A stretch of DNA of 32,000 nt from an uncultured Alphaproteobacteria bacterium (GTDB lineage: Bacteria; Pseudomonadota; Alphaproteobacteria; Rs-D84): positions 90,001-122,000 of the forward strand of contig OZ007020.1 in NCBI GenBank assembly GCA_963931495.1, read 5' to 3'. The translations under genes and the position numbers were made by a program. This document shows positions 8,949 to 31,823 of this stretch, one piece after another; positions within the stretch are counted from its first letter, which is position 1, and each line of letters opens with the position of its first letter. Below the pieces are notes generated by a model, which had not been told where the DNA came from, did no database searches, and saw nothing but the letters and a program-made list of their open reading frames with translations.

Positions 8949-8950
8949 CT

Positions 8951-10813: not shown

Positions 10814-10874
10814 GTGCAAAAAATAAAAAAAATTGTAAATTTTTATATATCAATTCACTTGGCAAAAAATGTTA

Positions 10875-11393: not shown

Positions 11394-11401
11394 ATTTAGA
11401 T

Positions 11402-11430: not shown

Positions 11431-11440
11431 ACACCGCACA

Positions 11441-15828: not shown

Positions 15829-18576
15829 TTATTGTTGTGTGTTTTGTTCGGCGACTTCGGATTCAACTTCGGATTCTTCGCCTTCATCGCTTAGAATAGA
15901 AATTGCCGATACAACGCGTTCGTTTTCCGCCGTACGGAACAGCGTCACACCCGCAGTTGCACGCCCAGCAATACGAACATCGCGCACAGGTGTACGTATT
16001 ATCTTGCCACCGTCGGTCACCATAATAATATCGTTATTATCGGCAACCGGGAACGAACCTGCCACCGCAGTGTTCTTGCCACCCAGTTTGATATTTGTAA
16101 ATCCACCGCCACCACGATGCGTTGTACGATATTCATACGAACTGGTGCGCTTGCCGAATCCGTTTTCAGACACAGTCAATATAAATTGCTCGTCGGCGGC
16201 CATGCGTGCCATTTGGTTATCATCCAATGTCAGTGTTGTGGATTCTTCGTCATCAGATGCCTCTTCTTCTATGCCGGTGGCGGCGCGACGCGCAGCGCGC
16301 GATTGCTTGATATACGCGGCGCGTACCGCGGCATCAGATTCGCCGTGTGTCAGCATCGCCATGCCGATAATTTTATCGTCTGGCCCCAATGTCATACCAC
16401 GTACACCGGTTGAATTACGGCCGGCAAATACACGAATTTCAGATACAGGGAATCGTATACAGCGCCCGCGATACGTTGCCAAGAATACATCTTGGTCTTC
16501 ACTGCATGGTAAAACAGAAATCAAACTGTCGCCATCGTCCAATTTCATCGCAATCTTGCCATTTGCACGAATTGAATCAAAATCAGATGTGCGATTGCGA
16601 CGAACCGTCCCAGACGCCGTTGCAAACATCAAGAAATGTTCTTTGCCGGACGCAGCAGCCGCGGCCACATCTTCTTCGGGTACTGGCAAAATTGCCGTGA
16701 TTGTTTCGCCATTTTCCAGTGGCAACAAATTCACCAGCGGACGTCCCTTGGCGGCGGCGGCGGCTTCGGGTAATTTATATGTTTTTAATTTATAGCATAT
16801 CCCGCGGGACGAAAAGAACAACAGCGGTGTATGCGTGTTCGCAACAAAAACCTGGACCACATAGTCATCGTCCTTGGTCGCCATTGCGTTACGCCCCTTG
16901 CCCCCACGTTTTTGCGCACGATACGTATCCAGTGATACACGTTTTATATATCCAGTATTTGATACAGTAATAACCATATCTTCGCGTGCGATTAAATCTT
17001 CTATATCAATATCTATTTCGGCATCAGATATTTCGGTACGACGCGGACTGGCCCAATTATCACGTACCATTGTCGTTTCATCGCGAATAATTTGGATAAT
17101 GCGTGCGTGACTGCCCAAGATGTCCAGCAAGTCTTTGATTTGCGCGCCCAATTCCACCAAATCAGCATGCAATTTATCACGTTCCAGCCCCGTCAAACGA
17201 TGCAACTGCAATTCCAAAATCGCACGTGCTTGGTCATCAGACATATAAAACATGCCGTCTTTGTATTCAGTATTTGGGTCATCAATCAATTGAATATAAT
17301 TTTCAATATCTGATGCACGCCACCCACGCGCGACCAATGCCGCACGTGCCGCATCCGGCGATTCACTGGATTTAATTAATTCAATAACTTCATCCAAGTT
17401 ACCAACCGCAACCGACAACCCCAACAACGTATGCGCCCGATTGCGCGCACGGTTCAAATCAAAAATCGTACGACGACGAATAACTTCGCATCGGAAATCA
17501 ATAAACGCATCCAACACACCACGAACATTAAACAACATCGGCCGGCCACGATTAAGCGCCATCATATTAACCGGAAAGTTCGTTTGCATTTCTGTGTACT
17601 GGAACAAATGATTCAGCACAACATCTGGAATTGCATCACGCTTTAATTCAATTACAATGCGCAATCCTTCCTTGGATGATTCATCACGAATTTCCGATAT
17701 ACCTTCTATGCGTTTATCCTTGCTTAATTCAGCAATTTTCATAATCAGTTGCGATTTGTTCACCTGGTACGGGATTTCATCAACAACAATTGCCGGATGG
17801 TCATGGAATGTTTCCATGTGCGTTTTTGCACGAACAATTATTGAACCACGTCCTGTGGTATGCGCCTTGTACGCGCCAGCGCGCCCCATAACAATTGCCC
17901 CAGTTGGGAAATCAGGCCCCGGAATTATGCCGAACAATTCATCGTCTGACAAATTCGGATTATCCAAAATCGCCAAAATCCCATTGCAAATTTCCCCCAG
18001 ATTATATGTCGGCACATTTGTCGCCATACCAACCGCAATCCCAGAACCACCATTTACCAAGAAATTTGGAAACTTGGTTGGCAAAACAACCGGTTCTTGT
18101 AATGTGCCATCAAAGTTCGGTTGCCAATCAACTGTATCTTTATCCAAATCATCCATCATGGATGCGCCCAGTTTGCTAAGCCGTGCTTCGGTATAACGCA
18201 TGGCCGCCGCCTTGTCCCCGTCGCGCGAACCAAAGTTACCTTGGCCCTGGACCAGCATTTCCCCCATGGAAAAATCTTGCCCCATACGGACCATTGCTTC
18301 ATATATAGAACTGTCACCATGGGGATGATATTTACCCATAACATCACCGACAATACGTGCGGATTTAACCGTCGGCTTTGTCGCCGGCGCAACATCATTC
18401 ATCACATACAAAATACGACGATGCACCGGTTTGCACCCGTCACGAACATCTGGCAACGCACGGTCAACAATGACCGACATCGCATAGTCCAAAAAACTGG
18501 TGCGCATTTCATGTTCCAGGGAAGATTGTGGAACCTTGACTTCATTTATTTCATTGATATTGTTTGTTTCTGACAT
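15829..18576 (-). CDS. gyrA: DNA gyrase subunit A (915 aa)
   Basis: The sequence matches GyrA unmistakably: [61 protein letters not shown] (QRDR region), the active-site region [10 protein letters not shown], beta-pinwheel CTD repeats and an acidic tail. I chose the start at ATG 18574-18576 (RBS AAGGGA). Confidence 0.97.
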
Positions 18577-18606
18577 ACTATGATTTCCCTTGTTTTTAAC
18601 AAGTAA

Positions 18607-18636
18607 AGAATAGCAAATTTTTTGACTTTTGGTCAA
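18607..18636 (-). promoter_or_regulatory. Candidate gyrA promoter
   Basis: On the minus strand: TTGACC (rc of 18631-18636), 18 nt, TATTCT (rc of 18607-18612). Motif match only. Confidence 0.3.
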
Positions 18637-18780: not shown

Positions 18781-18876
18781 ATGTTTTTACCACTGTGGCG
18801 ATTATTTGCGGCCCTGTTTGCGTATTATATGATACTGGAAGGTATGAAAAAATTGGGGCTGGTAAAATCTAAATAA
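18781..18876 (+). CDS. Possible small hydrophobic protein (31 aa), not in the ORF track
   Basis: The ATG at 18781 is preceded by AAGGGA with 7-nt spacing. The product is MFLPLWRLFAALFAYYMILEGMKKLGLVKSK, with the stop at 18874-18876. It is short and unsupported by anything else. Confidence 0.3.
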   Translation: MFLPLWRLFAALFAYYMILEGMKKLGLVKSK

Positions 18877-18933: not shown

Positions 18934-19086
18934 ATGGCAACAAAACGTACATATCAACCATCTAAAACACGCCGTGTGCGCACACATGGGTTCCGTGAAA
19001 AGATGGCAACAAAATCTGGGCGTGCGGTACTGAACCGCCGTCGTGCAGCGGGTCGTAAAAGACTGGCTGTCAGTGCAGTGAATTAA
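18934..19086 (+). CDS. rpmH: 50S ribosomal protein L34 (50 aa)
   Basis: My own translation is [50 protein letters not shown], which matches the highly conserved L34 pattern (KRTxQPS...HGFRxRMxTxxGRxVLxxRRxKGRKxL). RBS AAAGGA lies at 18921-18926. The ORF is below the 60-aa cutoff of the track. Confidence 0.95.
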
Positions 19087-19088
19087 AG

Positions 19089-19110
19089 AACCGCCGCGTG
19101 GCGGTTTTTT
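19089..19110. terminator. Bidirectional terminator between rpmH and the XRE gene
   Basis: AACCGCC-GCGT-GGCGGTT (19089-19106) followed by a T-run. In the reverse orientation it is followed by CTTTAATT. Confidence 0.8.
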
Positions 19111-19114: not shown

Positions 19115-19345
19115 TTAATGTTTACGCTTTGTATTATGTCGCACAGCCAGCATTACCATGCCATGATATGCGATTTTTTCCAATACTGATTCTGGAATTA
19201 ATCGTTTGCCACTTTCGTATCGGGTCAAATCACGACGTGATATCCCCATAATTCGGGACATTTCATGACGTTTTATATGCGCACATTTACGTGCACGACG
19301 TATTATTTGACCATAGTATGAATTATCAACCAATACAACAGACAT
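19115..19345 (-). CDS. XRE/Cro-type HTH transcriptional regulator (76 aa)
   Basis: The HTH_3-like pattern is GQIIRRARKCAHIKRHEMSRIMGISRRDLTRYESGKRLIPESVLEKI. The SD is GGGGGG (rc of 19354-19359). Confidence 0.8.
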   Translation of the reverse strand: MSVVLVDNSYYGQIIRRARKCAHIKRHEMSRIMGISRRDLTRYESGKRLIPESVLEKIAYHGMVMLAVRHNTKRKH

Positions 19346-19371
19346 TGTTTATTCCCCCCATATGTTTTGTT

Positions 19372-19524
19372 AAACAAAATACCGCCGTGATTAAGGGCGG
19401 TTGGAGGCTCAAAGCTATTAAAGGTAATAGTGTTGCTTATTTGTATATTCGCAACCCTCCAACCCATGTTGGAGTGTGTCCTTTAAGAGGTTTTGAGACC
19501 CCGCATCGGTAATCGGCCAATGCA
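19372..19524 (-). ncRNA. Candidate ~150-nt structured RNA: either the attenuator-type 5' leader of the XRE gene or a stand-alone sRNA
   Basis: The element is bounded by a strong promoter (19531-19558) and a terminator-like hairpin CCGCC-CTTAATCAC-GGCGG followed by TATTTTGTTT (rc of 19372-19400). Internally there are three mutually exclusive pairing partners: CTCCAAC (rc of 19468-19474), GGTTGGAGG (rc of 19455-19463) and CCTCCAACC (rc of 19399-19407, overlapping the terminator stem by 2 nt). A nested hairpin CTATTA/TAATAG lies at 19415-19430. The ends are estimates. Confidence 0.4.
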
Positions 19525-19530
19525 AGGCAT

Positions 19531-19558
19531 ATTATATCACAGGCAAATTGTTTTTCAA
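19531..19558 (-). promoter_or_regulatory. Strong sigma70-like promoter with extended -10
   Basis: On the minus strand: TTGAAA (rc of 19553-19558), 16 nt, TGaTATAAT (rc of 19531-19539). It starts 5 nt after the stop codon of the 243-aa gene. Confidence 0.55.
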
Positions 19559-19562
19559 ACAG

Positions 19563-20294
19563 TTAATACATCCGCACAGGCGACGTATTATATGTGCGTT
19601 CTTGCAATGCTTCTAAATTACGTGTAATGCATACACGCATATAATCAGTGCAGTTATTCAAATCATTTCTGTTGTTATTCAAATTTGTGCAATACGTATC
19701 CAGATTTTGACATTGACTGACATTTTGCGTACGATCATACAGATGCAATGTTTGTAAATCTGTTTCAATTTGACGCTTTGCCGCACCCAAATCAGAACTG
19801 TTGATTGCGGCAACCGTTCTGTCCAGGTTACGCGACAAACAATTCATAACATCACTGGTCGTGCCATTGCGACAATTTTCCGCACCAGCAACACCGTTAT
19901 TTCCACCAGTTGACGTTCCAGACGAACGTCCAGACGATGCACCCGCCGATTCCAGTTTTGTGGTCAAAATCTCGCGTTCCAGTTGCGTTTTTAACCGCCG
20001 TATCGTCGCATCCAGGTATTCATATTGCTTGTACATCTGTTGCGTTATGACCGTCGTTTTTAATGCGACAACATCACGCATTGCCTGTTGATCCGCCGCG
20101 GTGGACGGATTTTCCAAAAAACCAATATTATATGCATGCGTGCTGCATAACGCCAGCATCGGTGTAATACGGTCATTATTTGGGTCATTACATCCGTAAT
20201 CATCCGCCGCACGGGCCATGAATGTGGCGCCACAACCCAACACCAAAACTGTGGTAAACAAGGCGCGCTGTAAAAATTCTTTTACTTTCATCAT
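19563..20294 (-). CDS. Exported Cys-rich protein, possible lipoprotein (243 aa), unknown function
   Basis: The signal sequence is MMKVKEFLQRALFTTVLVLG|C, with a possible lipobox VLGC; SPase I cleavage after ARA is the alternative. I count 9 Cys, including CQNLDTYC and CTDYMRVC. A central coiled-coil-like segment and a Gly/Ser-rich linker are present. The start overlaps the upstream stop as ATGA (20291-20294). Confidence 0.8.
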   Translation of the reverse strand: MMKVKEFLQRALFTTVLVLGCGATFMARAADDYGCNDPNNDRITPMLALCSTHAYNIGFLENPSTAADQQAMRDVVALKTTVITQQMYKQYEYLDATIRRLKTQLEREILTTKLESAGASSGRSSGTSTGGNNGVAGAENCRNGTTSDVMNCLSRNLDRTVAAINSSDLGAAKRQIETDLQTLHLYDRTQNVSQCQNLDTYCTNLNNNRNDLNNCTDYMRVCITRNLEALQERTYNTSPVRMY

Positions 20295-22135
20295 TTCAAC
20301 AATTGTCCCAGCAACGATTGTGTATCTGCGGCGATTGATTTTTGCAATTCGGCATCTGATGCATTCATTGCGTCACGCACCGCCGGTATTTCGCACATCA
20401 ATGTATCATAGTTATATTCATAACCCAATATTTCACATACGCATTTGTTGTTTTCCCATCTGGTAATCTGGTCCCGCGCATTTTCGCACAGGCAACGCAT
20501 TTCACCATTTTCACGCGCATCATTTTTGCATAATTGGCGTATACGCTGGTCCGATTCACCACTGGTTTGCAAAACTGTCTGGTTGGCCACACCCGCAGTA
20601 TTGCGCATTTCACGATCGGTTACACATACCTGTTGCGGCAATTTCTTTAAGTTTGCCGCCGATTGCAAATCGCGATACGTTTGTTCATTAACCGCACAGT
20701 ATACAATGCCATCTGATTGCGGTGTCATTGTGCCACCGAACAGGCCACTGCCAAAACTGGACGGGGCATCTTGGTCAATGATACGTTTCAATGTTTCAAC
20801 ATCAATATCTGCGGCATCACTGCGTCCACGGAACAATGGTGAATTATCCAAAACTTCGGACGCACACCCCACACGAACCTGGAATCCATCTTCGCCTTCT
20901 TCGGGATACAGCCAATTACGCTGAACCTCTTCTTCATCCGCCAATACGCGGATTAATTGACATCCGCCATCCGACATGGGTACAACCTGGCCCGGTTTGC
21001 ATGCCGCATTACCATACACCCGCCCGCCGTTTGTAAACACCGTTCCATCAGACATCCCGTTTGGGCAATTAATACTGTTATAGTGCATAACCTGGCCTTC
21101 GGCGCACAAGTATTGTCCCCACGCATTGCAAGAACCATTCAGCATCATGTATATATCAGTAATATCCACACCCACAGATTGGGCCAAAATTAACGCATCA
21201 TATAATTCATCCAGCACGTCATCATATGGATCAAAGAACTGCATTGCTTTTTCTTTGAACGCACTGACGCGCTTTGGGCCCGAACAATTACCACCATTGG
21301 AATCACACCCGGCGTAATCAAACGCCGTTGTCATTGCCGCCTGGACAGAACGCAATGCGGTTTCCGCCCCTTCTATCTTTGATAAAATTTGACCGGCAAT
21401 TTGTTCACGTGCCAAAACATCCGCCGAAACACCCGCCGCCGCCGCAGATTGTTGGGCCGCCGTCAGCGCCCCCGTTGTCCCGGTTGTGGCCCCAGTTGTC
21501 GCCGATTGCACAGGTGCGGTCGTAGTTACTGTTTGAACATTTTGCTGGGCCGCCGCCGCGATTGCATCGGCGGTCGCCTGTTGCTGTTGCGCCAATGCCG
21601 CCTGGATCTGGGCGGCAGTATCCGCACTTTGCTGTTGCATCTGTTGTTGCATGGCGGTCATTTGCTGTTGCATCATGGCCATTTGTTGGCTGCTCTGTTG
21701 GGCGGCCGCATTTGCCGCCGCAATTTGGGCGTTTGTTGCCGCCGCGGTGGCCGTGGCGTTTGCATCAGACACCAACTGGGCCGATATATATTCAATCAAA
21801 TCATCGCCGTATTGTTTACATGCAGAATTTGATTCCACACACCCTGATACAATTGGACGCGCAATTTCCATCGTACTGCACCCGCCACCAGCACATTTTG
21901 GTTGCGCACAACGCAATATCACAGAATTACAATTACCAAAATCAGCCACTGGACCACTGGTCGTGGTATTCGCACGCGGATTCATATACGAATTCCACAT
22001 GGCATTATTATTCGCCCCAGACGACGGATTATACGCGGTTAAATTACTGCCCAACGTGGTGGCAACCGGCGCCGCCGTGGCATGTATCGCCACAAGCCCC
22101 AGCACAACCGATAAAAATGCGGGTATGTATTTCAT
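20291..22135 (-). CDS. Exported Cys-rich protein with a Gln/Ala-rich low-complexity region (614 aa), unknown function
   Basis: I chose the start at ATG 22133-22135, giving the signal peptide MKYIPAFLSVVLGLVAIHATA|AP. I count 22 Cys. The low-complexity Q/A/T tract is encoded at ~21425-21763. Confidence 0.8.
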   Translation of the reverse strand: MKYIPAFLSVVLGLVAIHATAAPVATTLGSNLTAYNPSSGANNNAMWNSYMNPRANTTTSGPVADFGNCNSVILRCAQPKCAGGGCSTMEIARPIVSGCVESNSACKQYGDDLIEYISAQLVSDANATATAAATNAQIAAANAAAQQSSQQMAMMQQQMTAMQQQMQQQSADTAAQIQAALAQQQQATADAIAAAAQQNVQTVTTTAPVQSATTGATTGTTGALTAAQQSAAAAGVSADVLAREQIAGQILSKIEGAETALRSVQAAMTTAFDYAGCDSNGGNCSGPKRVSAFKEKAMQFFDPYDDVLDELYDALILAQSVGVDITDIYMMLNGSCNAWGQYLCAEGQVMHYNSINCPNGMSDGTVFTNGGRVYGNAACKPGQVVPMSDGGCQLIRVLADEEEVQRNWLYPEEGEDGFQVRVGCASEVLDNSPLFRGRSDAADIDVETLKRIIDQDAPSSFGSGLFGGTMTPQSDGIVYCAVNEQTYRDLQSAANLKKLPQQVCVTDREMRNTAGVANQTVLQTSGESDQRIRQLCKNDARENGEMRCLCENARDQITRWENNKCVCEILGYEYNYDTLMCEIPAVRDAMNASDAELQKSIAADTQSLLGQLLK

Positions 22136-22223
22136 ATTCTCTCTTGGCATTAATTTTAACACAAAAAATTCATTCTTGAAAGATAAAAATCGCAACACAG
22201 CACAAAAAGCACCCAGATAAAAA

Positions 22224-22250
22224 TTGACAAAATACTATATTTTGTATAAT
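22224..22250 (+). promoter_or_regulatory. Candidate promoter placed only 10 nt upstream of the ATG (leaderless-type arrangement)
   Basis: TTGACA (22224-22229), 15 nt, TATAAT (22245-22250). With 17-nt spacing the -10 would read TAATAT. The ATG lies at 22261, and there is no SD in between. Confidence 0.5.
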
Positions 22251-22260
22251 ATTATACGAT

Positions 22261-24021
22261 ATGATTATACAAAATGGAACTTTAACGAATATTGATGCGT
22301 CTGATATAAATCCAGACGGTGTGTTACGTATACCACCCAAAGTTACTGGGGTCGCCGACAATGTCGGTTGTAACATCCCCAATATGCGTGCAATTTACTT
22401 TCCTAATTCGGTATTACGTATTCCCGGCGGCGTTTTTAATAATAACCCAAACCTGGAATTTATTGATTTCGGTGACAATGTTGCCAGCATAGAATTTGAA
22501 TCTTTTCAAAACTGTCCGCGTCTGGAAACAATTAAAATACCATATAAATGGAATTCACTGCACCCGTGGGTGGGGACCATATTTCCAAATCTGGGTCGCA
22601 TAATAAGACGTACCCAGGACGGGGGTGAACAAGACTATCCTGTACAAAAAATTCAAAACACATATTACTATGAATCTGGATGGCGTTGCATCGGTGACAT
22701 AAAAATTCTGAAATTACATATGCTGAATTTCAATGCCAACGGCATATCCCCGGAAACAAAAACAGGTATTCGGATTAATCGCGTAACAACGGTTGGCAAC
22801 AATATTCATGCCGCAATAAATAATTTCCGTAAACACCAAATATCACAAGAATTTGAACGCGCAATATATATCTATGATTCAAAAAATCAACACCATGAAC
22901 AGTTTGATGAACATAAATCTGTTCTGCGACATGCAATGCGACGTTCACTGGGGCATACAAACGAAATGACAATCGCAATGCGTGAAAAGTTTCATGAATA
23001 TATACGTCATATCCCAACATATATAAAATATATTGATGACGTTATGAAAAAATATCCAAATGCACGCGGACAAATCCAAGAACTGGACGATTTAACAATG
23101 GACGAAACATTGAATATAATAACCCCGCGCCCCCATGATGCGCGCGTTGCCCAGTCTTGTACACGTTGGCTGAAACGCCACCCAGTATCGGCCGATGAAA
23201 TGATTGCCATTGTACGCGCAGGATACAAAAATCCGGGCGCATTTCCGTATAGTTGGCTGGCCAAAACACCAAAAAAAGAACGTGGAAAATTAACACAAAA
23301 ATTGCACACATTGTTCCAGACAACCACAACAAAAATGTACGGCCCAGATAACAAAACAGAATTTAACCAAGAACTGGCACAAATGGCACAATCACTGGGG
23401 CGATTAATTAAACAGCCGGTAAACATAGAATATCTGGAATCTGGGAATTTTTCAAAAACGTATACTGTACAAATTCCTGGTGATAAAAAATATGTGTGGA
23501 AAATGTACCACAGCAATCGCGACGGTAAAATATTCACTGATTGGAATCACAATACAGAATTACAAAACTCTTTCTTGGTTTCGGGCAGAAAGTATTACGG
23601 AAAAATGAAATTCCGTAAAATATCTGTGGCCGGAATCAGTAACCAACGCGGAGAGATATATTTAATATATCCATATACCGAATATCGCAACAAAATATAC
23701 CCAGGTGGCCACATCACCCCGACATTAAAAAACTTTAATATTTACGACAGAAATATTAATAATTTTTGTGGTGATACGGTCATTGATATCGGTGCACTGC
23801 GGATAAATAACGCGCGATTACGTCAATCACGACATGTTTTGAAGATATCTAATACAATATTATATCATTCGTGGGATGATTTAACATACATATTGGATAA
23901 ATACAGTGTGCCGGAAATATCGGATGCATGCAGTTTTATATCAAAAAGTCTGAAACCCAACAGTTATCAATACAAAACAATTCGTGACAAAATAATATAT
24001 CTGCGTACACATATGCGATAA
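22261..24021 (+). CDS. LRR (BspA-type) plus protein-kinase-like fusion protein (586 aa), no signal peptide
   Basis: The N-terminus has BspA/LRR_5-like repeats (IYFPNSVLRIPGGVFNNNPNLEFIDFGDNVASIEFESFQNCPRLETIKIP). The C-terminus (aa ~385-545, nt ~23413-23895) carries the ordered kinase motifs: G-loop LESGNFSKTY, beta3 Lys YVWK(414), alphaC Glu at +19 (E433), hinge-like EIYLIYPYTE, catalytic YD(496)RNINN(501) and DIG (D509). Confidence 0.85.
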   Translation: MIIQNGTLTNIDASDINPDGVLRIPPKVTGVADNVGCNIPNMRAIYFPNSVLRIPGGVFNNNPNLEFIDFGDNVASIEFESFQNCPRLETIKIPYKWNSLHPWVGTIFPNLGRIIRRTQDGGEQDYPVQKIQNTYYYESGWRCIGDIKILKLHMLNFNANGISPETKTGIRINRVTTVGNNIHAAINNFRKHQISQEFERAIYIYDSKNQHHEQFDEHKSVLRHAMRRSLGHTNEMTIAMREKFHEYIRHIPTYIKYIDDVMKKYPNARGQIQELDDLTMDETLNIITPRPHDARVAQSCTRWLKRHPVSADEMIAIVRAGYKNPGAFPYSWLAKTPKKERGKLTQKLHTLFQTTTTKMYGPDNKTEFNQELAQMAQSLGRLIKQPVNIEYLESGNFSKTYTVQIPGDKKYVWKMYHSNRDGKIFTDWNHNTELQNSFLVSGRKYYGKMKFRKISVAGISNQRGEIYLIYPYTEYRNKIYPGGHITPTLKNFNIYDRNINNFCGDTVIDIGALRINNARLRQSRHVLKISNTILYHSWDDLTYILDKYSVPEISDACSFISKSLKPNSYQYKTIRDKIIYLRTHMR

Positions 24022-24061
24022 AGCATTTTTGGATGCCAGCATCGCAACAAGCATGCATAAA

Positions 24062-24087
24062 AACACCGCCCAAATGGGCGGCGCTTT
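24062..24087. terminator. Bidirectional terminator between convergent genes
   Basis: CCGCCC-AAAT-GGGCGG (24066-24081) is flanked by AAAAAC on the left and CGCTTTTT on the right. It abuts the stop (24088-24090) of the minus-strand gene. Confidence 0.8.
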
Positions 24088-27000
24088 TTATTCCAATCCG
24101 AGACTGATTATGTCGCCATAATCACCGGCCTCCATCGTGCCGATATAACACTTTATATGACGGCCGATATCATCCATCCATTCTTCATAGGCCTCTTTTT
24201 CAGCGGCAGATAACGTGGACTGTTGTATATCACGCGTGGCCTTCCATACCAAGAAACCACCCGCTGCACCAGTGACCGCCGCGCCCAATGTTGCGCCCAG
24301 GCCACTCCATGCATTGCTGGATTTTCCAGATGTTTGAACAGAATTTGATTCTGATTCCAACAAATCCAACGCACGCAGTGCCGATCTTTTCAGTGACGCG
24401 ATAGTATTTGCGTTTTCGCTGTCGCTGATAATCAACTGTTCATGGCCATTCACCGTGGTAACAACCGCATCGGACCATGCGTTAACGCCGTTAACCGCCC
24501 CCGTGATAACACTGGATGTAATATTTTGTTCGCGCGCATTACGTTTCATCATTGTAACATATGTTGGCAACGTATCTTGCACATCACGAATATTGGGCGC
24601 GTTCAATATATCGCGGATTGCATCAATATATTGCACGGTTTTGTTGCTGGCTGTTGTACCAGATTGTGTCTTGTTCGGATTATTGAATCCGGTCAGACCA
24701 CTGAACACCGTGCCCTTTTGAATACCAGACCCCAGATATGCACCACCAACGGCACCGCCCAACGTTCCCAACAATGTTGTCCAGAATGTTGTTCTGTTCT
24801 GGTTCGCCACCATATCCGCGGTTGCATCGGCAACAACACTGTCGGTGATGTCTTCCAGGTCATCGGCCGGAATCCAACTGCCACAGGTAAATGTGTCACC
24901 CACAGCAAAGAATGCGTTTGACCAATCGGCACCCTTCATTGCTTCTTGAACCTTGGCATCATCTGATTGCAACGTGACCTTGACCGCACAGAACGAACCA
25001 TACAAATCGTTACTGGTTACAAAGTCATTGCGCGCCAAACCGTTTACACCATAATCATCTGGGACGCGATTACTGCGCAATTTTGACCACATGAATGTAC
25101 CACCGGTATCACTGGCAGCCATAATTCCGCCCGCATTCCCCGACAAACATGCGTGCTGTTCTTGGGTTAATTTACTGTTATAAATTGCCTGGGCTTCTTT
25201 TTCTAAATCATACATCAAATCCGAGAACAATGATTCTGCGGCCCGATTTTGGGTATATGTTGTATATGAAATATAGGCAGGTTCATCGTATACATCCCCA
25301 TCTGGGGTCACAGTATCACAAATGCCCTTGCTGCGGTCAGATGCATAGCACAATTTGTTGCCATCAATATCCGTTTCTTGGATATCTGTTTGAACCTGGT
25401 CTTCTGTGATATTAATGGACGAACCCGCATCCAGCCATCCACCACGAACGTTTGTCGCACTGCCCCACGAACTGGTGCTGTTGGACATATTGGCTTTAAC
25501 CTTGGCCTGTTCAATTGCCAGATGTTCTTGGCACACGGTTGCATTTTTAACCGTATCCAGACACAACCCCAATACAATCGTATAATCCAAAACACCACCA
25601 ACGCGATTCATGCTCTTGTTAAACGATGTGCTTTCTGAATTCGTCAATGACGAGTATATGTCCGTACGGTTACGATAACATGCCGAATATTCTTCGCCGC
25701 ACATAGACTTTACACAACTTTTTGCAACATTTTCGCATTGTGTGCGCATCTGGGCGATTGACGCATCGTTATAACTGCTGGCCAAAGAGGCATTCAATGA
25801 TGCGACAACCCCAATCGGATCAGAACCGTTGTCTTTATATTCTGGGAATAACGTCGTAAACACATCTTGATTAATATATGAATATGTATACGTACCGATT
25901 CCGTCGGTATTCGCCGCAGCATACATACAGTACGGATCTGTATTCACGATTGCCGAACATCCGTTTTTGATTTCGTCATAAACAGCACTGCTGTTAATTG
26001 ATTTATCGGTGCCACCAAACACCTGGTAATAACAGGCGGCCCCACTGCCCCCGCCGCACGTACGCATTACGCATGACGAAATTGTTTCCACGCAACTGGC
26101 GCGCGCATCGGCGTCAAATTCTTCTATTAATGTATTGATTTTGGATTTCATAGACGAATTCATACGCGCCGAATACGCTTCGGCAAAAATACCTTCTTGG
26201 TTATCCATATCACTTAATTGTGACGCGGTTGGCATTGCACCATTACCCAAGAATGTGGCATAGCAATATTTGTTTGCCCCAATCGTATCCAGGCATTGAT
26301 TCTTTATATAACCCTGGATATCAGAATTGCTGACCGCGTTGGTATTCACATTCAAATCAGCCAGTGATGTTATTGACGTACCTGATTGAATCGCATCAAA
26401 CAATGCCGTGTTTTGACCCGACATGCCTTCGCTGCACTTATACGGACTGGCCGCACAGGCATTATAGAAACATTGATCAACAACCTTGTAACACGTAGAT
26501 ACCGCATTCACCGCCGCCAGGGCCGCACCTTCACTTATCATTATGCCGATGCGACTGTCAGATGTGGGATTGCCAGATGTATTTGTTGAACCAAATAATT
26601 CTGTTTTCCCTTCGCTTTGGCAACGGGCCAATGTTGATTCACAAAATACTTTTTGCTTTTTGAATTCGGAATTCGTTGTACACAATTCAAAATCCGCACC
26701 ACATACATTGTCACGTTGCAGACATGTTGTATAACGTCTGATACAGTCACTGGTATCATACATATTTGAAATTGCCGCGCCCGCAATCATTTGCCCCATA
26801 ACACTGCCATTCGTGGGATACGTATAGTCGGTAATTTCACCATCTGAATTTGTTGATGCGACATTCGCCAACGCCGTTGTTGACGATGTTCCAAACAGAC
26901 TGTTTACACCCGCCGCGCTGCACTGGGCCAATGTGCTGATACACTTTGGCATTTTGCCGTGGAATAAAACCTTGGTTGTGCATTCTTCAAAATTTGGGCC

Positions 27001-27243
27001 GCACGCGTCGGCATCAGACATACATGATGTATACGCTTCTATGCATTCAATGTTGTCCATCAAATTTGACGAAGAATTTGTCGTTGTCCCAGATACAATC
27101 GTACCGCCATTTATGTACGCCGTCATCGTCGGTAAACGTGTTGCCACCGTGCCAACAACACTGGGGCGCGCCGTTAATGCAAACGCCGCCGGAATCACGC
27201 ACAAAACAGCCGTAAATCCAATCGTTTTTTTCAACAAGTTCAT
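24088..27243 (-). CDS. Giant exported Cys-rich protein with two C-terminal Gly-zipper TM helices (1,051 aa), unknown function
   Basis: I chose the start at ATG 27241-27243 (RBS GGAG ~8 nt upstream), giving the signal peptide MNLLKKTIGFTAVLCVIPAAFA|LT. I count 37 Cys. A six-Cys module is duplicated with a 100-aa period. The C-terminal hydrophobic Gly-rich segments are TTFWTTLLGTLGGAVGGAYLGSGI and WSGLGATLGAAVTGAAGGFLVW. Confidence 0.85.
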   Translation of the reverse strand: MNLLKKTIGFTAVLCVIPAAFALTARPSVVGTVATRLPTMTAYINGGTIVSGTTTNSSSNLMDNIECIEAYTSCMSDADACGPNFEECTTKVLFHGKMPKCISTLAQCSAAGVNSLFGTSSTTALANVASTNSDGEITDYTYPTNGSVMGQMIAGAAISNMYDTSDCIRRYTTCLQRDNVCGADFELCTTNSEFKKQKVFCESTLARCQSEGKTELFGSTNTSGNPTSDSRIGIMISEGAALAAVNAVSTCYKVVDQCFYNACAASPYKCSEGMSGQNTALFDAIQSGTSITSLADLNVNTNAVSNSDIQGYIKNQCLDTIGANKYCYATFLGNGAMPTASQLSDMDNQEGIFAEAYSARMNSSMKSKINTLIEEFDADARASCVETISSCVMRTCGGGSGAACYYQVFGGTDKSINSSAVYDEIKNGCSAIVNTDPYCMYAAANTDGIGTYTYSYINQDVFTTLFPEYKDNGSDPIGVVASLNASLASSYNDASIAQMRTQCENVAKSCVKSMCGEEYSACYRNRTDIYSSLTNSESTSFNKSMNRVGGVLDYTIVLGLCLDTVKNATVCQEHLAIEQAKVKANMSNSTSSWGSATNVRGGWLDAGSSINITEDQVQTDIQETDIDGNKLCYASDRSKGICDTVTPDGDVYDEPAYISYTTYTQNRAAESLFSDLMYDLEKEAQAIYNSKLTQEQHACLSGNAGGIMAASDTGGTFMWSKLRSNRVPDDYGVNGLARNDFVTSNDLYGSFCAVKVTLQSDDAKVQEAMKGADWSNAFFAVGDTFTCGSWIPADDLEDITDSVVADATADMVANQNRTTFWTTLLGTLGGAVGGAYLGSGIQKGTVFSGLTGFNNPNKTQSGTTASNKTVQYIDAIRDILNAPNIRDVQDTLPTYVTMMKRNAREQNITSSVITGAVNGVNAWSDAVVTTVNGHEQLIISDSENANTIASLKRSALRALDLLESESNSVQTSGKSSNAWSGLGATLGAAVTGAAGGFLVWKATRDIQQSTLSAAEKEAYEEWMDDIGRHIKCYIGTMEAGDYGDIISLGLE

Positions 27244-27269
27244 AAGACTCACTCCATACTTATTAAGTA

Positions 27270-27297
27270 AGTATAACATAAAATCAATTTCAGACAA
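27270..27297 (-). promoter_or_regulatory. Candidate promoter of the 1,051-aa gene, overlapped by a 7-bp inverted repeat
   Basis: On the minus strand: TTGTCT (rc of 27292-27297), 16 nt, TATACT (rc of 27270-27275). The palindrome ATACTTA-N5-TAAGTAT (27256-27274) spans the -10 and TSS region. Confidence 0.45.
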
Positions 27298-27336
27298 AGA
27301 AAAAATATGTGAATTTACATATATTTTATACGATTT

Positions 27337-28317
27337 TTATGCCCCGTGGGCCGTATCTAAAATTGCGCGCAATTCCATCATATCATCCGGCATACGTGCC
27401 TTGAAATGCATCGGCTGTCCAGTAATCGGATGTACAAAATCCAATATTTCTGCGTGCAACATCTGGCCCGAATGACTTTTTATAAAATCACGCAAATCCA
27501 TGTCCTGAACACTGCCGATGCGATTTGAACCACGACCGTAAATTGGGTCACAAACGACCGGGAATCCATGTGCCGATAAATGTACACGTATTTGATGCGT
27601 GCGACCGGTCATTAACGTACAACGAAACAGCGAAATTCCCGCCCGCGACCACACAGATGCAACATTTACAACCGTGTGCGCTGGCTTTCCCCCGGTTTTA
27701 ACCATAGTCATTTTTTGCCGATTTCGCGACGAACGCGCAATATTTCCCGTAATATCTGCGCCGTCCCAATTTGGCACCCCCCACACAAACGCCAAATATT
27801 TACGCGTCAAATCATGCCCAGAAAAAATCTTGACCAGTCCACGATACGCCGCATCAGATTTTGCAAACACCATAACACCACTGGTATCTTTATCCAGACG
27901 ATGAACAACCCCTGGGCGCGTTTCGCCCCCCAGTGACGACAAATGTGTATGTGATAAAATATTTTGAACCAGCGTACCCGTTTTGTTCCCCGCCGATGGA
28001 TACATGACGACGCCACGCGGTTTATTAATTACAATGATGTCATCGTCTTCATATAAAATATCCAGTTCAAAATCAGATGATATATTATCTGTGGCAACAT
28101 CGGTTGTACGCACCAATGGGGTTACATTAATTACGTCACCCGGACGAACGCGTACAGAAAACTTTACCGCCCCACCGTTCAGCGTTACGGGAAAACGCTG
28201 GATTTCACTGCGCGAAAATTCGGGTAAATTAGTGGCCAAAAACTTATCCAAACGCGTCCCAGATTCAGAATCTGGGACAATAAATTCACGCGCGGATAAC
28301 GTTTTATTTGTATTCAT
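27337..28317 (-). CDS. rluD: 23S rRNA pseudouridine synthase, RluA family (RluD-like), 326 aa
   Basis: An S4-like N-terminus is present (GTRLDKFLATNLPEFSRSEIQRF), together with the catalytic motif HRLDKDTSGVMVFAK and the conserved RTHQIRVHL. I preferred the start at ATG 28315-28317 because ~22 aa before the RLD motif is typical. The start at 28353 is the alternative. Confidence 0.9.
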   Translation of the reverse strand: MNTNKTLSAREFIVPDSESGTRLDKFLATNLPEFSRSEIQRFPVTLNGGAVKFSVRVRPGDVINVTPLVRTTDVATDNISSDFELDILYEDDDIIVINKPRGVVMYPSAGNKTGTLVQNILSHTHLSSLGGETRPGVVHRLDKDTSGVMVFAKSDAAYRGLVKIFSGHDLTRKYLAFVWGVPNWDGADITGNIARSSRNRQKMTMVKTGGKPAHTVVNVASVWSRAGISLFRCTLMTGRTHQIRVHLSAHGFPVVCDPIYGRGSNRIGSVQDMDLRDFIKSHSGQMLHAEILDFVHPITGQPMHFKARMPDDMMELRAILDTAHGA

Positions 28318-28771
28318 CCCAATCCGGTCCCTTGTCGCAATCCGCCAAATCAATCGTTAATTCGCGGCCATCACTGTCCACCGGGCATGTTAATATGCCG
28401 GTACTGACCGCCTGGGTCGCGTCACGCGCCGCATTGCGCCATGTAAATTTTATTTCTGTGGGCGCATACAGGCATGCAATTCGCAATTCGCCATCGTGCC
28501 GATTGTTCGGACCAATCCATACGCGAACACCTTCGCCTAATCCATAACACGGAAAGCCATCCAGATAGTACAAAACCAAACCACGCCCCACAATCCCAGA
28601 TGACGGAATAAAATTACCACGATATTCAGAATATCGCAATCCTGTTAACCCTTCCCAATCAGTACTGGTGGAAAACAGACTGATTCGTGGTGTTTGGACG
28701 GGCGCCGGGGCATCAGCGGCAAACGCGCCCCACGGAATCAAGCACAATAAAAACATTAAAAAATATCGCAT
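28304..28771 (-). CDS. Secreted/periplasmic protein, hypothetical (155 aa)
   Basis: The signal peptide is MRYFLMFLLCLIPWGAFA|AD. The start directly abuts the stop of the upstream gene (28772), and the 3' end overlaps the rluD start. Confidence 0.7.
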   Translation of the reverse strand: MRYFLMFLLCLIPWGAFAADAPAPVQTPRISLFSTSTDWEGLTGLRYSEYRGNFIPSSGIVGRGLVLYYLDGFPCYGLGEGVRVWIGPNNRHDGELRIACLYAPTEIKFTWRNAARDATQAVSTGILTCPVDSDGRELTIDLADCDKGPDWDEYK

Positions 28772-29281
28772 TTATTTTTCCCCATTGTCCAATTCAACAG
28801 ATATCCGCGCAACGCCAACCGTCGGTACAGACAAAATATGCGAAAATGTCGCAACCCCACCGGAATCCAGCAATGTTGCCGGTGGCAAAAAACGCTGGCG
28901 TTCAACGACGTTTCCATCTGTATCGTATGATGTTATTAATAACCCTGGGACACCATAAATTTGTTCAGAACGATTATGAACAGTGCCACTGACCATAAAA
29001 TGTGGGGCACCAAACGCGTCCAACCCGGTGGATATTTCGGAAATTTCCGCGACCAATGGATTTTCACGAATCTGTTTAACCCGATACTGGGACATAACCG
29101 CCACGGCAAACACAATCGCCGCCAATAATGCGCACAGCGCCGCGAAAAATACCAGCCACGAATTACGCCGTGGCGGCCGACGCACAACCCATGTGTTACC
29201 ACACACCGCACACTTAACCGGCCCATTTGGGATTGAATTTAATGAATATTCTGTTTTACAAAAATCACATACTGTTTTCAT
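28772..29281 (-). CDS. Zinc-ribbon (CxxC...CxxC) plus single-TM protein, MJ0042-finger/DUF3426-like (169 aa)
   Basis: The N-terminus MKTVCDFCKTEYSLNSIPNGPVKCAVCGNTW has two CxxC pairs. It is followed by a basic stretch, one TM helix (WLVFFAALCALLAAIVFAVAV) and a ~100-aa beta-rich C-terminal domain. The family assignment is from memory of this architecture. Confidence 0.7.
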   Translation of the reverse strand: MKTVCDFCKTEYSLNSIPNGPVKCAVCGNTWVVRRPPRRNSWLVFFAALCALLAAIVFAVAVMSQYRVKQIRENPLVAEISEISTGLDAFGAPHFMVSGTVHNRSEQIYGVPGLLITSYDTDGNVVERQRFLPPATLLDSGGVATFSHILSVPTVGVARISVELDNGEK

Positions 29282-29301: not shown

Positions 29302-30621
29302 TTATTCTAAATTCAACATACGATATTTTGCGCGAACGCTGGTCTGGATTTCTTGGATTGCATTAATATAATCAGACACAGTTGCGTTTTTATTCGCCAC
29401 AACCGCACTGAATTTTTCATATGCCACCGTGTTCGTCGCGCGTTCAGCATACGTAATGTCTTGGGCCATCCGGTTTAATTCCTGTAACGTTATGTCCATA
29501 AAATTCATAACACCTGTACTGGCGTCCCAAAAATAATTTGGATTCACAGAATCTTCTATGCGATTGCGCACAATTAAACGCGGTGCAACCGAACCAGCAA
29601 ATCCAACCGTAACAAACATTGCACTGATTGTTCCGCCTGTCATATCCAAAGTTCTATTAATATTCAAAACAATCGGACCCGTTTCATCAGACGACACAGA
29701 TAAACCACCCAATGTCAAATTTGCCGTATACAAATCCCCCGTTGTAAAATTAGAAAATTTTCCTGTATCTGCCAAATTAAATGTATCTGCGACCTCTATT
29801 TCCCGCGAATCAGCGGTAAATGTGCCGGCAACACTGACATTTAATACTTCCAGTGCTTTATCAAGTGTTGTTCTGGTTTGAAAAATTACATCATCTGCCA
29901 CACTGACGCCGACATTCAAATTCTCGTTAAACTGGGCCGATGACGCATCAAAAAATTTTGCATTTGATATATTGTGGCCCCCAAGATTTAATCCAGACAG
30001 CATTGTCGCATCAGACGCATCATCAGACGGCAAACGCCATAAATACAACGTGTTGTCCGTGTTAACAGATGTCGTTTCAATAATCCCCCCAGATGACGAT
30101 ATACCCAAATCAATCGCATCAGCATGCCACGACCCAAATGTTCCATATGCACGTGTGCCGTCCAAAAATCCCATATTATCCCCACCCAGTGATACAATTT
30201 CACGCGTGCGCATTGGACTGATTTCATCCGACGAAAAAACAATAACACCCTGTAAAGTTGCCCGTCCATTGGAATCATTGGATTTCAATACCCGTAATTG
30301 ATACATATCACCTGCGTCGGTTAAATCAGCCGACACGCCATATGGAACCAGTTCAGAAATATTTACACGGGTTATATTACGCCCAACCGCCGACAATAAA
30401 TTTTGACGATGATCCATTATATAGCGTTCCAGCGCATCTTGGATATCAGACATCTGGCGTGTTATTGCGATGTTTTCAGCACGCTGGGTAACGGTTTGTT
30501 GATATTGAAATATAAACGGCATTATGATTGCCGCCAACGCAATACTCATCAACAATTCAACCAACATGCTGCCATGCTGGGATAATTTTTCGTGGTTAAA
30601 AGGTATATGTATTCTGTTCAT
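29302..30621 (-). CDS. Large prepilin-type N-terminal domain protein (439 aa), paralogue of the upstream gene
   Basis: The start at ATG 30619-30621 forms an ATGA overlap with the upstream stop. The leader MNRIHIPFNHEKLSQHG|SMLVELLMSIALAAIIMPFIF has a Gly at the cleavage site, Glu at +5 and a hydrophobic helix, which is the type IV pilin/pseudopilin signature. The C-terminal part is repetitive and beta-helix-like. Confidence 0.8.
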   Translation of the reverse strand: MNRIHIPFNHEKLSQHGSMLVELLMSIALAAIIMPFIFQYQQTVTQRAENIAITRQMSDIQDALERYIMDHRQNLLSAVGRNITRVNISELVPYGVSADLTDAGDMYQLRVLKSNDSNGRATLQGVIVFSSDEISPMRTREIVSLGGDNMGFLDGTRAYGTFGSWHADAIDLGISSSGGIIETTSVNTDNTLYLWRLPSDDASDATMLSGLNLGGHNISNAKFFDASSAQFNENLNVGVSVADDVIFQTRTTLDKALEVLNVSVAGTFTADSREIEVADTFNLADTGKFSNFTTGDLYTANLTLGGLSVSSDETGPIVLNINRTLDMTGGTISAMFVTVGFAGSVAPRLIVRNRIEDSVNPNYFWDASTGVMNFMDITLQELNRMAQDITYAERATNTVAYEKFSAVVANKNATVSDYINAIQEIQTSVRAKYRMLNLE

Positions 30622-31823
30622 TGCACTAAATCCATTGGCATTGCACTGCGCCAATCATCAGACATTATTACCGAAAATTCATTTGCCACCGGTAATGCCG
30701 GCACAGACGCACGACGCAGGTGTAATTCTGTGATACGTGGCGGGTTTAATGATGGAAATGTCCACGATCCAATTCGCAATGGTGCCGTCGTTGACATCAA
30801 CAATTCGCCAGAAATTGTTAATCCAAAATTATCATAAAATATGATTTCTTCGGTTGATATAAATGATGTCTTGACCGTATGTGCAGATATACCTGTAAAT
30901 GCACTGATTGTACGCGAAGAATCAGATTTTAATTCAAAATTATTTGCCACGTTTACAGAATTTGCCACCGTTGCCCGATCTGTTATTATCCGACCATTAG
31001 TTGAAAATCCATCGCCATTTAACTTGTTTGCATATATATTACGAAATCCAGACATATCACCTGTGACGCGCAATTTACCAAATGCTGTATTTTGTGCATC
31101 CAAACTGGCCCCAGATGAAAAGTACAGTGTATCGGCCGACAAACTAGCTGTTTCAATAAATGGCACAGATGCATTTTTTATCTTTCCAGAATCTGCAACA
31201 ACACCGCCAACATTGTAAGCACGATTTTTATTCATATTCAAATCACGAAACATTGTGTTCAGTTGTTCTTCGCTGTTTTCCGTACGATGCAGATATTTTG
31301 TTTTATCTTCGCCGGTGATATCGCGCGAAATTTTATATATTAAGTCCCCTGGACGAAAATCTGGGGCCGATACCGCCCATGCACCACCATATGCAATTCC
31401 GTCAGAACCCACAACCGCGGCATCAGAACCAATATGACGCGCAACCTGATTTGTACGCAAACTTGATTGATTCAAATCAAACGACAAATACACATCTGTG
31501 ACTGTTGCGCCATTTAATGAATATTTATCAATAAATCCTGCGACTGGGACATCGGATATTGAATCCAATTCTTCATCAGATAATTTTATCTGGGCAACAT
31601 CAGGCCAAGTATTTTGATTTAATCGGACAAAATTCAAAACACTGTCGCGCAAACCTATAATCTTGTTGGCCGCCGCAATATCACGCAACGTGTTATTTGT
31701 ATCGGCAATCTGGCCATACAAGAACGGCGCCGCCATCGCAACAATCGCCATGGCCAGTAATACTTCGGTCATACTGGCACCACGTTGTGAATTCGCAAAA
31801 ATACGCACCCTAGAAGCAGTCAC
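30618..31823 (-). CDS. Large prepilin-type N-terminal domain protein (401 aa)
   Basis: The start is GTG at 31821-31823. An in-frame stop lies 4 codons upstream, so this is the first possible start, and a GGACGGG SD-like sequence precedes it. The leader MTASRVRIFANSQRG|ASMTEVLLAMAIVAMAAPFLY has the same G|xxxxE signature. Confidence 0.8.
   Translation of the reverse strand: MTASRVRIFANSQRGASMTEVLLAMAIVAMAAPFLYGQIADTNNTLRDIAAANKIIGLRDSVLNFVRLNQNTWPDVAQIKLSDEELDSISDVPVAGFIDKYSLNGATVTDVYLSFDLNQSSLRTNQVARHIGSDAAVVGSDGIAYGGAWAVSAPDFRPGDLIYKISRDITGEDKTKYLHRTENSEEQLNTMFRDLNMNKNRAYNVGGVVADSGKIKNASVPFIETASLSADTLYFSSGASLDAQNTAFGKLRVTGDMSGFRNIYANKLNGDGFSTNGRIITDRATVANSVNVANNFELKSDSSRTISAFTGISAHTVKTSFISTEEIIFYDNFGLTISGELLMSTTAPLRIGSWTFPSLNPPRITELHLRRASVPALPVANEFSVIMSDDWRSAMPMDLVQ

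Follow-up and report, generated by a model that had tools for sequence, protein, structure and literature searches.

Do the five genes that fill the interval between rpmH and rluD in a gut alphaproteobacterium form one accessory module, or do separate units lie side by side there? The question is raised by a stretch of 32,000 nucleotides (the window; positions 90,001 to 122,000 of contig OZ007020.1, assembly GCA_963931495.1), whose host is a Candidatus Enterousia-like gut alphaproteobacterium of the order Rs-D84. At 19115-27297 the window encodes an XRE-type regulator, three Cys-rich, predicted exported proteins of 243, 614 and 1,051 amino acids (aa), and a 586-aa protein that joins leucine-rich repeats (LRR) to a kinase-like domain. 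Bacteria of the Rs-D84/Enterousia group have genomes below 1 Mb from which most biosynthetic pathways and respiration are absent. It has been suggested that they are obligate symbionts or parasites, maybe taking metabolites from other cells, and in the same comparative study the candidates for cell contact were limited to 'hypothetical membrane-bound proteins' (PMC12306168). A literature search found no paper on the 243-, 614-, 586- or 1,051-aa proteins. The original prediction, made from the sequence alone, took the five genes as a single lineage-specific host-interaction module in which exported proteins with a common cysteine signature are paired with a eukaryote-like LRR-kinase. Its description of the locus was accurate, as the open reading frame (ORF) listing and the family scans contain the five genes, the ATGA overlap between two of them, the terminator of rpmH and the quoted cysteine motifs. 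Our data point to another reading of the same genes. The best overall explanation, which has about an even chance of being right, is that three independent lineage-restricted units are juxtaposed in a reduced-genome gut alphaproteobacterium.

Three units between rpmH and rluD

Relatives of the 1,051-aa protein were found in 157 species genomes (scan with one genome per species), and 80 loci retrieved out of these species were used for all the synteny counts. The loci come from human, chicken, ruminant and other animal guts and belong to Ca. Enterousia or to unclassified gut Alphaproteobacteria, apart from one record labelled Bacteroides fragilis. The named relatives of the large proteins show the same distribution, in line with the lineage specificity that had been claimed. 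The position of rluD was counted in 77 loci with enough sequence, and the genes downstream of the 1,051-aa gene in 61 loci with at least 3 kb. rluD (27337-28317, - strand; RluA-family pseudouridine synthase, NCBIfam TIGR00005, 245.5 bits vs a cut-off of 192.7) lies directly upstream of the 1,051-aa gene (24088-27243, - strand) and on the same strand in 69 of the 77. The two are part of a near-universal order, in which genes for a 401-aa and a 439-aa pilin-like protein, a 169-aa zinc-ribbon protein and a 155-aa exported protein are followed by rluD and the 1,051-aa gene. Downstream, the pair of 614-aa and 243-aa genes is present in 27 of the 61 loci, either with the kinase gene between the 1,051-aa and 614-aa genes (17 loci) or without the kinase (10 loci), and neither pair nor kinase is present in the other 34. 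The XRE gene is sporadic, being found in 3 of the 80 related loci and beside other genes there. The interval between rpmH and rluD does vary between species, but its 1,051-aa part is near-constant after rluD. It is made of three separate units: the 1,051-aa gene, the 614/243 pair together with the kinase gene, and the sporadic XRE gene. The exported proteins and the kinase-like protein belong to the conserved make-up of the lineage and do not form a single island of recent acquisition. The claim of a single accessory island fails on the 1,051-aa gene, which encodes a core protein of the lineage, has its own conserved strong promoter and keeps its place just downstream of rluD.

The promoter of the 1,051-aa gene (27270-27297, - strand) consists of TTGTCT, 16 nt and a TG-extended TATACT, and is followed by a GGAG ribosome-binding site. 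Promoter and ribosome-binding site are conserved in 24 of 24 aligned sequences, the window and 23 species. A TTG at 27297 was considered as an alternative start codon and rejected; because it sits within the conserved -35 element, the ATG at 27243 is the real start of the gene. The spacer between rluD and the 1,051-aa gene (27244-27336 in the window) contains a hairpin with a T-run 3' of rluD in many of the 23 loci. Downstream of the hairpin stands a strongly conserved block, made of TTTTTCTTTGTCT, about 13 nt, TGTTATACT, then AATAAGTATGGAGTGAGTC and the ATG. With its own promoter and the hairpin after rluD, the 1,051-aa gene is therefore transcribed as a unit of its own, placed behind rluD. 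A similar-looking block, TTTTTATCTTT ... TGTTAAAAT, was noticed upstream of the 614-aa gene; the similarity of the two could come from the general promoter consensus of the organism or from shared regulation.

The 614-aa gene (20291-22135, - strand) and the 243-aa gene (19563-20294, - strand) are joined by an ATGA overlap and are translationally coupled here. They are adjacent in every case in the 80-locus comparison, and in five species their homologues are fused as one ORF encoding a single polypeptide (L019:14738-17314, L020:14738-17311, L022:14799-17369, L033:4473-6839 and L046:6800-8968). Because of these fusions the two proteins are regarded as functionally linked.

In all three of the different contexts seen, the kinase gene (22261-24021, + strand) is divergently placed next to a 614-aa homologue. 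The metagenome contigs L087 and L091 have the gene arrangement of the window. In L090, the apparent closest species, the order is acyl-ACP thioesterase, LRR-kinase, 614-aa homologue, 243-aa homologue, rpmH and gyrA; in L026, from the same sample as L090 (BRZ_DB), the 1,051-aa gene is on a separate contig and an XRE gene comes after it. L088 and L089 have a kinase homologue without LRR, placed between a 614-aa homologue (59% identity) and a different Cys-rich protein of 765 aa. The divergent control region between the 614-aa and 586-aa genes, a spacer of 125 nt (22136-22260), holds conserved promoter-like blocks for both (12-sequence alignment, the window and 11 species). On the side of the 614-aa gene these are a promoter-like block and a GAGAG ribosome-binding site, and on the other side a near-consensus kinase promoter, TTGACA-N17-TAATAT (22224-22252, + strand), ends 9 nt before the kinase ATG. 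At its other end the kinase gene converges with the 1,051-aa gene, and a G+C-rich hairpin (CCGCCCAAATGGGCGG) followed by a T-run (24066-24081) lies in the 66-nt gap. The proposed pairing of exported proteins with the kinase holds in so far as the kinase gene stays beside the 614-aa homologue across rearrangements, but ten species have the pair without the kinase. In L032 (about 11310-11768), where the kinase gene is missing, a short remnant matching the kinase LRR was observed between the 1,051-aa and 614-aa homologues, a hint of kinase loss in that species as opposed to an original absence.

It had further been proposed that conserved synteny breaks exactly at the left border, where rpmH (18934-19086, + strand; ribosomal protein L34, 50 aa, matching Pfam Ribosomal_L34 on an identical contig) faces the XRE gene and is not followed by rnpA. 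In L090 rpmH is also convergent, with the 243-aa homologue, and no rnpA comes after it. The left border is shared with the closest relative and is thus no fresh break. In the distant L081 rpmH is again paired with gyrA, a gene located at 15829-18636 (- strand) in the window. The hairpin between the convergent rpmH and XRE genes (19089-19106) is G+C-rich with T-runs on both strands, and is probably a bidirectional terminator. The XRE gene itself (19115-19345, - strand) encodes 76 aa, with a match to Pfam HTH_3 at residues 15-59 (27.7 bits vs a cut-off of 23).

Cysteine modules of the predicted exported proteins

The 243-, 614- and 1,051-aa proteins each have a hydrophobic signal-like segment at the N-terminus (hydropathy scan), and A-x-A-like cleavage sites are kept among their orthologues (alignments). 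The possibility that the 243-aa protein is a lipoprotein, raised by VLGC at residues 18-21, was rejected, as Cys21 is unconserved and the orthologues show an A-x-A site. Cysteine makes up 3.5-3.7% of the three proteins vs 0-1% of the gyrA, rluD, pilin-like and 586-aa products; the smaller neighbours of 155 and 169 aa likewise have about 3%. After subtraction of one signal-peptide cysteine for the 243-aa and one for the 1,051-aa protein, the predicted mature chains contain 36 (1,051-aa), 22 (614-aa) and 8 (243-aa) cysteines. All three counts are even, which would fit complete disulfide pairing.

The 1,051-aa protein has at least 939 full-length homologue clusters. Near its N-terminus are two 'A' modules (residues 67-108 and 167-208; 26620-27045, - strand) of the pattern C-x6-C-x6-C-G-x-[DN]-F-E-x-C-x12-C-x6-C, which on the aligned pattern appear to be a clear internal duplication; a hidden Markov model (HMM) of the module recovers both copies in the orthologues with E of about 1e-29. 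Three 'B' modules follow (residues 251-270, 384-404 and 503-522; 25678-26493, - strand), with the pattern C-x6-C-x4-C-x6/7-C, and after each of them comes a C-x9-C pair. All cysteines of the A and B modules are invariant across 41 homologues. Towards the C-terminus there are two Gly-rich hydrophobic segments (residues about 821-841 and 979-1000; 24244-24783, - strand), of which only the second is above the threshold of the hydropathy scan. A hypervariable helical segment separates them, and a conserved 50-aa tail with one cysteine (C1032) comes after. If the protein were anchored in the membrane with both of its ends exported, its even cysteine count would be accounted for. Its predicted structure is mostly alpha-helical with the Cys modules on helices, at low confidence (pLDDT 60, pTM 0.35).

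A second Cys-rich family of 709-941 aa in related genomes gives weak matches to the A-module HMM (E = 5e-4 to 4e-3). Its members, with one A module each (for example CVNALDDCMQDDFVCGDDYENC), were seen at L088:3521-5818 (- strand), L030:13404-15680, L056:12567-15113, L057:1945-4074 and L059:13369-16194, and they suggest a wider set of module-sharing exported proteins in the lineage. The chlamydial proteins OmcA/OmcB and Chlam_OMP3 are comparable in concept, as disulfide-rich proteins that would stiffen an envelope. A sub-threshold Pfam match to Chlam_OMP3 (E = 0.024) at residues 245-273 of the 1,051-aa protein shows no homology; being seen in only 1 of 41 family members, it was put down to chance and the similarity rejected.

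The 614-aa family has at least 1,249 homologue clusters. In the protein a Cys module near the N-terminus is followed by a low-complexity or coiled-coil stretch rich in Gln and Ala and by a C-terminal half that is conserved and Cys-rich. Of the 22 cysteines of the protein, 18 are invariant among orthologues. These include all six of the N-terminal module (residues 69-106; 21818-21931, - strand), C-x6-C-x4-C-x4-C-x12-C-x6-C. The 243-aa protein, which also has a coiled-coil segment, belongs to a family with only six invariant cysteines (C35, C50, C141, C152, C202 and C215). Both of its C-x6-C motifs depend on C195 and C222, which are not conserved and flank the invariant C202 and C215; they look like an extra outer staple on a helix-loop-helix hairpin.

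The cysteine motifs were the ground on which the three proteins had been grouped. Their chance occurrence was estimated from 20,000 shuffles for each protein. In the 1,051-aa protein C-x6-C-x4-C is observed 3 times vs 0.04 expected and C-x6-C 13 times vs 1.2 expected, counts that none of the 20,000 shuffles reached. C-x6-C-x4-C occurs once in the 614-aa protein (P = 0.024) and C-x6-C twice in the 243-aa protein (P = 0.03). The C-x6-C-x4-C motifs are invariant among orthologues of the 1,051-aa and 614-aa proteins. Every quoted motif is present, but the C-x6-C motifs of the 243-aa protein are unconserved among its orthologues. Kinship through the common signature was not borne out: hhalign comparisons of the three family profiles returned probabilities of 0.1%, 0.3% and 1.9%, so that the motif similarity is non-significant from profile to profile. 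An HMM of the C-x6-C-x4-C module of the 1,051-aa protein gave no match to the 614-aa family at E <= 0.01, the A- and B-module HMMs matched neither the 614-aa nor the 243-aa family, and pairwise BLASTP among the three proteins gave nothing below E = 0.29. On these three kinds of comparison a single paralogous family was rejected. Short common cysteine spacings hinted here at a kinship that profile methods do not support, and this calls for caution.

No Pfam, NCBIfam or PADLOC family covers the 1,051-aa and 614-aa families. All four large proteins lie outside any named housekeeping family in Pfam, NCBIfam and the other family scans, as had been supposed. Among the anti-phage families of PADLOC none matched the four, and the XRE protein matched only a generic HTH.

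The LRR-kinase protein

The 586-aa protein, exact copies of which occur on metagenome contigs of up to 0.2-1 Mb, lacks an N-terminal hydrophobic segment in the hydropathy scan. It is composed of a short BspA-type LRR (about residues 1-110), then a beta domain (113-179) and a helical region (182-383), and lastly a kinase-like alpha/beta domain (about 385-586). The LRR_5 match at residues 24-99 (22330-22557, + strand; Pfam, 38.6 bits vs a cut-off of 27.7) is found in 27 of 30 family members, and the family profile matches PDB 4gt6 with E = 5.9e-37. About 100 N-terminal residues are thus like those of BspA-type LRR proteins (4gt6, 4fs7), which are cell-surface proteins of gut bacteria; the 586-aa protein differs from them in its few repeats, in the missing signal peptide and cell-wall anchor and in the fused enzyme domain of intracellular type.

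The kinase-like domain (23413-24018, + strand) was delimited by conservation and structural matches. Its features are the Gly-rich loop with G395, K414 as the beta3 Lys, E433 as the helix-C Glu, the catalytic loop D496-x4-N501 and D509-x-G511 as the equivalent of DFG, and these catalytic residues are also conserved in 30 close homologues. In front of it, the helical region carries a family-specific G-x-x-P-x-x-W motif (G326, P329, W332; 23221-23256, + strand). Close homologues are few, only 33 clusters. A profile of residues 290-586 reached further: of 1.84 billion representative proteins, 245 are related at E <= 1e-3, 61 of them at E <= 1e-10. Most of the 245 are stand-alone proteins of 300-400 aa outside the LRR-fused group, and the 10 distant members scanned belong to no Pfam family. 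In 30 relatives of 13-25% identity only G326, P329, W332, G395, K414, E433, D496, N501, D509 and G511 are invariant or at least 90% conserved, the start Met set aside. The canonical catalytic set is conserved, and this is the strongest argument for predicting an active member of the protein-kinase-like (PKL) superfamily.

The AlphaFold2 model, built from 30 sequences, has a pLDDT of 88.2 and a pTM of 0.77. In a Foldseek search against PDB the large majority of its top 50 matches are kinase-fold proteins, along with a few BspA-type LRR proteins. The best matches are COQ8A/ADCK3 (E = 3e-3) and APH(2'')-Ia (probability 0.97); others are Src, Lck, BTK, macrolide phosphotransferases (Mph), a pre-40S ribosome chain and the UbiB-like MSMEG_1954. 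On the model, the C-terminal half of the 586-aa protein would be a bilobal kinase-fold domain with an intact catalytic set, and this prediction holds; the protein may accordingly be read as an active phosphotransferase. The predicted fold of residues about 385-586 and the full set of catalytic residues are shared with the PKL superfamily (COQ8A/ADCK3, APH(2'')-Ia, the macrolide 2'-phosphotransferases and the Src family), and the helical extension ahead of the N-lobe is like that of COQ8/UbiB. The G-x-x-P-x-x-W motif, a short C-lobe and the unusual fusion to a BspA-LRR set the protein apart. In it a BspA-type LRR is fused to a domain from an undescribed protein-kinase-like family, with all of the catalytic residues retained.

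Eukaryotic LRR-kinases, such as Roco/LRRK proteins and the plant LRR receptor kinases, also have an LRR followed by a kinase-fold domain, in the same order as in the 586-aa protein. The latter differs in having the BspA/LRR_5 type of repeat and neither a Roc-COR nor a transmembrane segment, and its kinase domain is unrecognisable by sequence as a eukaryotic protein kinase. While the LRR and the kinase fold of the original prediction were confirmed, the term 'eukaryote-like' is unwarranted, because the LRR is of the bacterial BspA type and the kinase domain has no sequence match in Pfam or PDB.

Explanations of the locus and its surroundings

How could these units serve the organism? The 1,051-aa protein would be exported by Sec and fold outside the cytoplasm as a mostly helical body, in which the repeated Cys modules, with C-x6-C on successive helical turns, may staple helix hairpins by disulfides, and its two C-terminal Gly-rich hydrophobic segments may hold it in the envelope. 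Twin-Cx9C (CHCH) domains are disulfide-stapled helical hairpins and offer a structural analogy. The likeness consists in Cys pairs about two helical turns apart on consecutive predicted helices with short loops, and it is clearest in C-x6-C-x12-C-x6-C, found in all three exported proteins. The latter differ in having x6 and not x9 and in being large, multi-module, bacterial and extracytoplasmic, and no sequence relationship was found. The 614-aa and 243-aa proteins could be two halves of one exported, disulfide-rich and coiled-coil-containing assembly. Together the exported proteins would form a disulfide-stabilised envelope or surface structure, used for contact with a partner cell or host by an organism unable to make most metabolites. 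The kinase could be a regulator or effector coupled to the 614/243 assembly, and the XRE gene an occasional passenger. For this functional reading, an extracytoplasmic cell-contact structure with a coupled kinase, the chances are roughly balanced, and it is much less firm than what is said here of structure and evolution.

Several observations weigh against it. The Cys-rich proteins are only predicted to be exported, to form disulfides and to be anchored in the membrane, and the kinase is only predicted to be active. The model of the 1,051-aa protein is poor, and Foldseek returned for it generic helical or four-helix bundles alone (E >= 0.48). The sequence of the 1,051-aa protein changes about as slowly as those of the housekeeping genes nearby (45-70% identity vs 69-81% for RluD), unlike what is usual for a surface antigen exposed to a host. 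In absolute terms the kinase-fold matches of the 586-aa protein are weak, with low TM-scores and E = 3e-3 to 5e-2, and no sequence profile ties its kinase domain to a known kinase, either in Pfam (30 close and 10 distant members) or in PDB. The protein has no recognisable secretion signal and might have a purely cytoplasmic role unrelated to its neighbours. Coupling between the kinase and the 614/243 pair is dispensable or variable, because ten species have the pair without the kinase and 34 of the 61 loci have neither at this position.

The same facts bear on the alternatives. If all five genes were one lineage-specific accessory island for host interaction, with paralogous disulfide-rich proteins and a eukaryote-like LRR-kinase, one could point to the large proteins without a named family, to a kinase gene that stays beside the 614-aa gene through rearrangements, to a block that differs among species at this position and to an organism thought to depend on partners (PMC12306168). 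The 1,051-aa gene is nevertheless a core gene with its own promoter that occurs without the others in 34 of 61 loci, and in the apparent closest species it is on a different contig from the kinase/614/243 unit. Moreover, the three Cys-rich families are unrelated in profile-profile comparison, the motifs of the 243-aa protein are unconserved, and neither the bacterial LRR nor the kinase, which has no sequence match to eukaryotic kinases, is eukaryotic in type. The single island is unlikely. A self-standing kinase is also rather improbable. Here the 586-aa protein would be a cytoplasmic kinase for a small molecule (lipid, sugar or antibiotic) or a housekeeping enzyme, and the place of its gene beside the Cys-rich genes would mean nothing for function. 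The structural matches to COQ8A/UbiB-like proteins, APH(2'') and macrolide phosphotransferases agree with this, as do the missing signal peptide, the gene's own promoter and terminator, the ten species with a 614/243 pair and no kinase, and the distant relatives, mostly stand-alone proteins of 300-400 aa. But adjacency to the 614-aa gene survives at least three genomic contexts, and the fused, protein-binding LRR suggests a protein as partner or target. A housekeeping role is argued against because the family is narrow (33 close homologue clusters) and not at this position in all species.

Two further explanations concern the exported proteins. It is very unlikely that the 614-aa protein is a diverged TraN, the Cys-rich outer-membrane adhesin that stabilises mating pairs in F-type conjugation, and that its neighbourhood is left over or derived from a conjugative or type IV secretion system (T4SS). 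The idea has its origin in the UniRef name of a homologue from Ca. Enterousia avicola (P0248), 'IncF plasmid conjugative transfer protein TraN', and in the likeness of F TraN, with 602 aa, a signal peptide and 22 cysteines, to a protein of 614 aa with a signal-like segment and also 22 cysteines. The cysteine spacing is different, and there is no detectable sequence or profile similarity. Pfam TraN was matched by none of 14 family members even at E <= 10, the PDB profile search did not support it, tblastn against 72,556 plasmids gave nothing at E <= 1, and hhalign of the family profile with F TraN gave a probability of 0.7% and aligned the signal peptides alone. No tra or T4SS genes are near; the neighbours seen are rluD, pilin-like genes, rpmH, gyrA, leuS and an acyl-ACP thioesterase gene, in conserved chromosomal positions of a genome below 1 Mb. 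TraN was therefore ruled out as the identity of the 614-aa protein. The name of P0248 may be a database mis-annotation, because no sequence test supports it, and as such could spread to other entries. Least probable of all, and very remote, is a role of the cysteines in coordinating metals or cofactors instead of forming structural disulfides. Their content is high and conserved, and oxidative folding is less obvious in the presumed anaerobic gut habitat. But CxxC- or CxxCH-type spacings are absent and x6, x4, x9 and x12 dominate, on predicted helices; the mature cysteine counts are even and signal peptides are predicted in all three proteins, which match no metal-binding families.

The surroundings of the block contain other genes of interest. 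Immediately 5' of rpmH is a 31-aa hydrophobic ORF (MFLPLWRLFAALFAYYMILEGMKKLGLVKSK; 18781-18876, + strand), for which there is a gene call on the identical contig and at the matching site in L090 (10736-10831). The window start cuts a 16S rRNA gene, of which the 5' two-thirds are present (1-1043, - strand; Rfam, 1009 bits). An efflux cluster at 5235-10865 (- strand) encodes an AcrB-family pump of 1,022 aa, an outer-membrane efflux protein (OEP), a MarR-type regulator and a 199-aa protein without an assigned family; the cluster shows that the envelope of the organism is Gram-negative. tRNA-Gln(TTG) (10915-10988) and tRNA-Glu(CTC) (11441-11515) are on the + strand, as is the gene of an 883-aa autotransporter (11819-14470; beta-domain at residues 631-863), another candidate for a surface protein.

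Upstream of rluD are the genes of a 155-aa exported protein with five cysteines (28304-28771, - strand) and of a 169-aa protein (28772-29281, - strand) with an MJ0042-type N-terminal zinc ribbon, one transmembrane helix and a sub-threshold FxLYD/DUF3426-like domain. Almost every species keeps both of them in this place, after the pilin-like genes and before rluD. They are preceded by three Cys-free proteins of about 400-450 aa with prepilin-type N-termini, encoded at 29302-30621 and 30618-31823 (both - strand) and, for the third, across the window end; this last protein has 451 aa in L001 (19550-20905). Two of the N-termini, G|SMLVE and G|ASMTE, have Glu at +5, and the third is G|NFLLQ. The 439-aa and 401-aa proteins are weak paralogues (E = 3e-5), and the prepilin-like genes are conserved upstream of the zinc-ribbon, 155-aa and rluD genes in about 70 species. 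Type IV pili go unreported for this lineage in the published survey. One might go further and see in the Cys-rich proteins and the three large prepilin-like proteins an undescribed disulfide-stapled surface apparatus for attaching to and feeding on a partner cell, with the LRR-kinase, founder of a new bacterial kinase family, as its regulator or delivered effector. This is a speculative extension which we consider unlikely.

The juxtaposition of three lineage-restricted units remains the preferred explanation. Ca. Enterousia (Rs-D84) is a widespread, uncultured lineage of human and animal guts with a genome below 1 Mb, and the locus provides concrete candidates for its study. One is the 1,051-aa core protein, retained in all species examined. 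Another is the Cys-rich partner pair of 614 and 243 aa, in two parts and sometimes fused. The third is a kinase-fold family with an intact active site, which is in no curated domain library and comprises 245 representative clusters; it would enlarge the protein-kinase-like superfamily. All of them are testable entry points to the biology of a reduced-genome gut symbiont or parasite.

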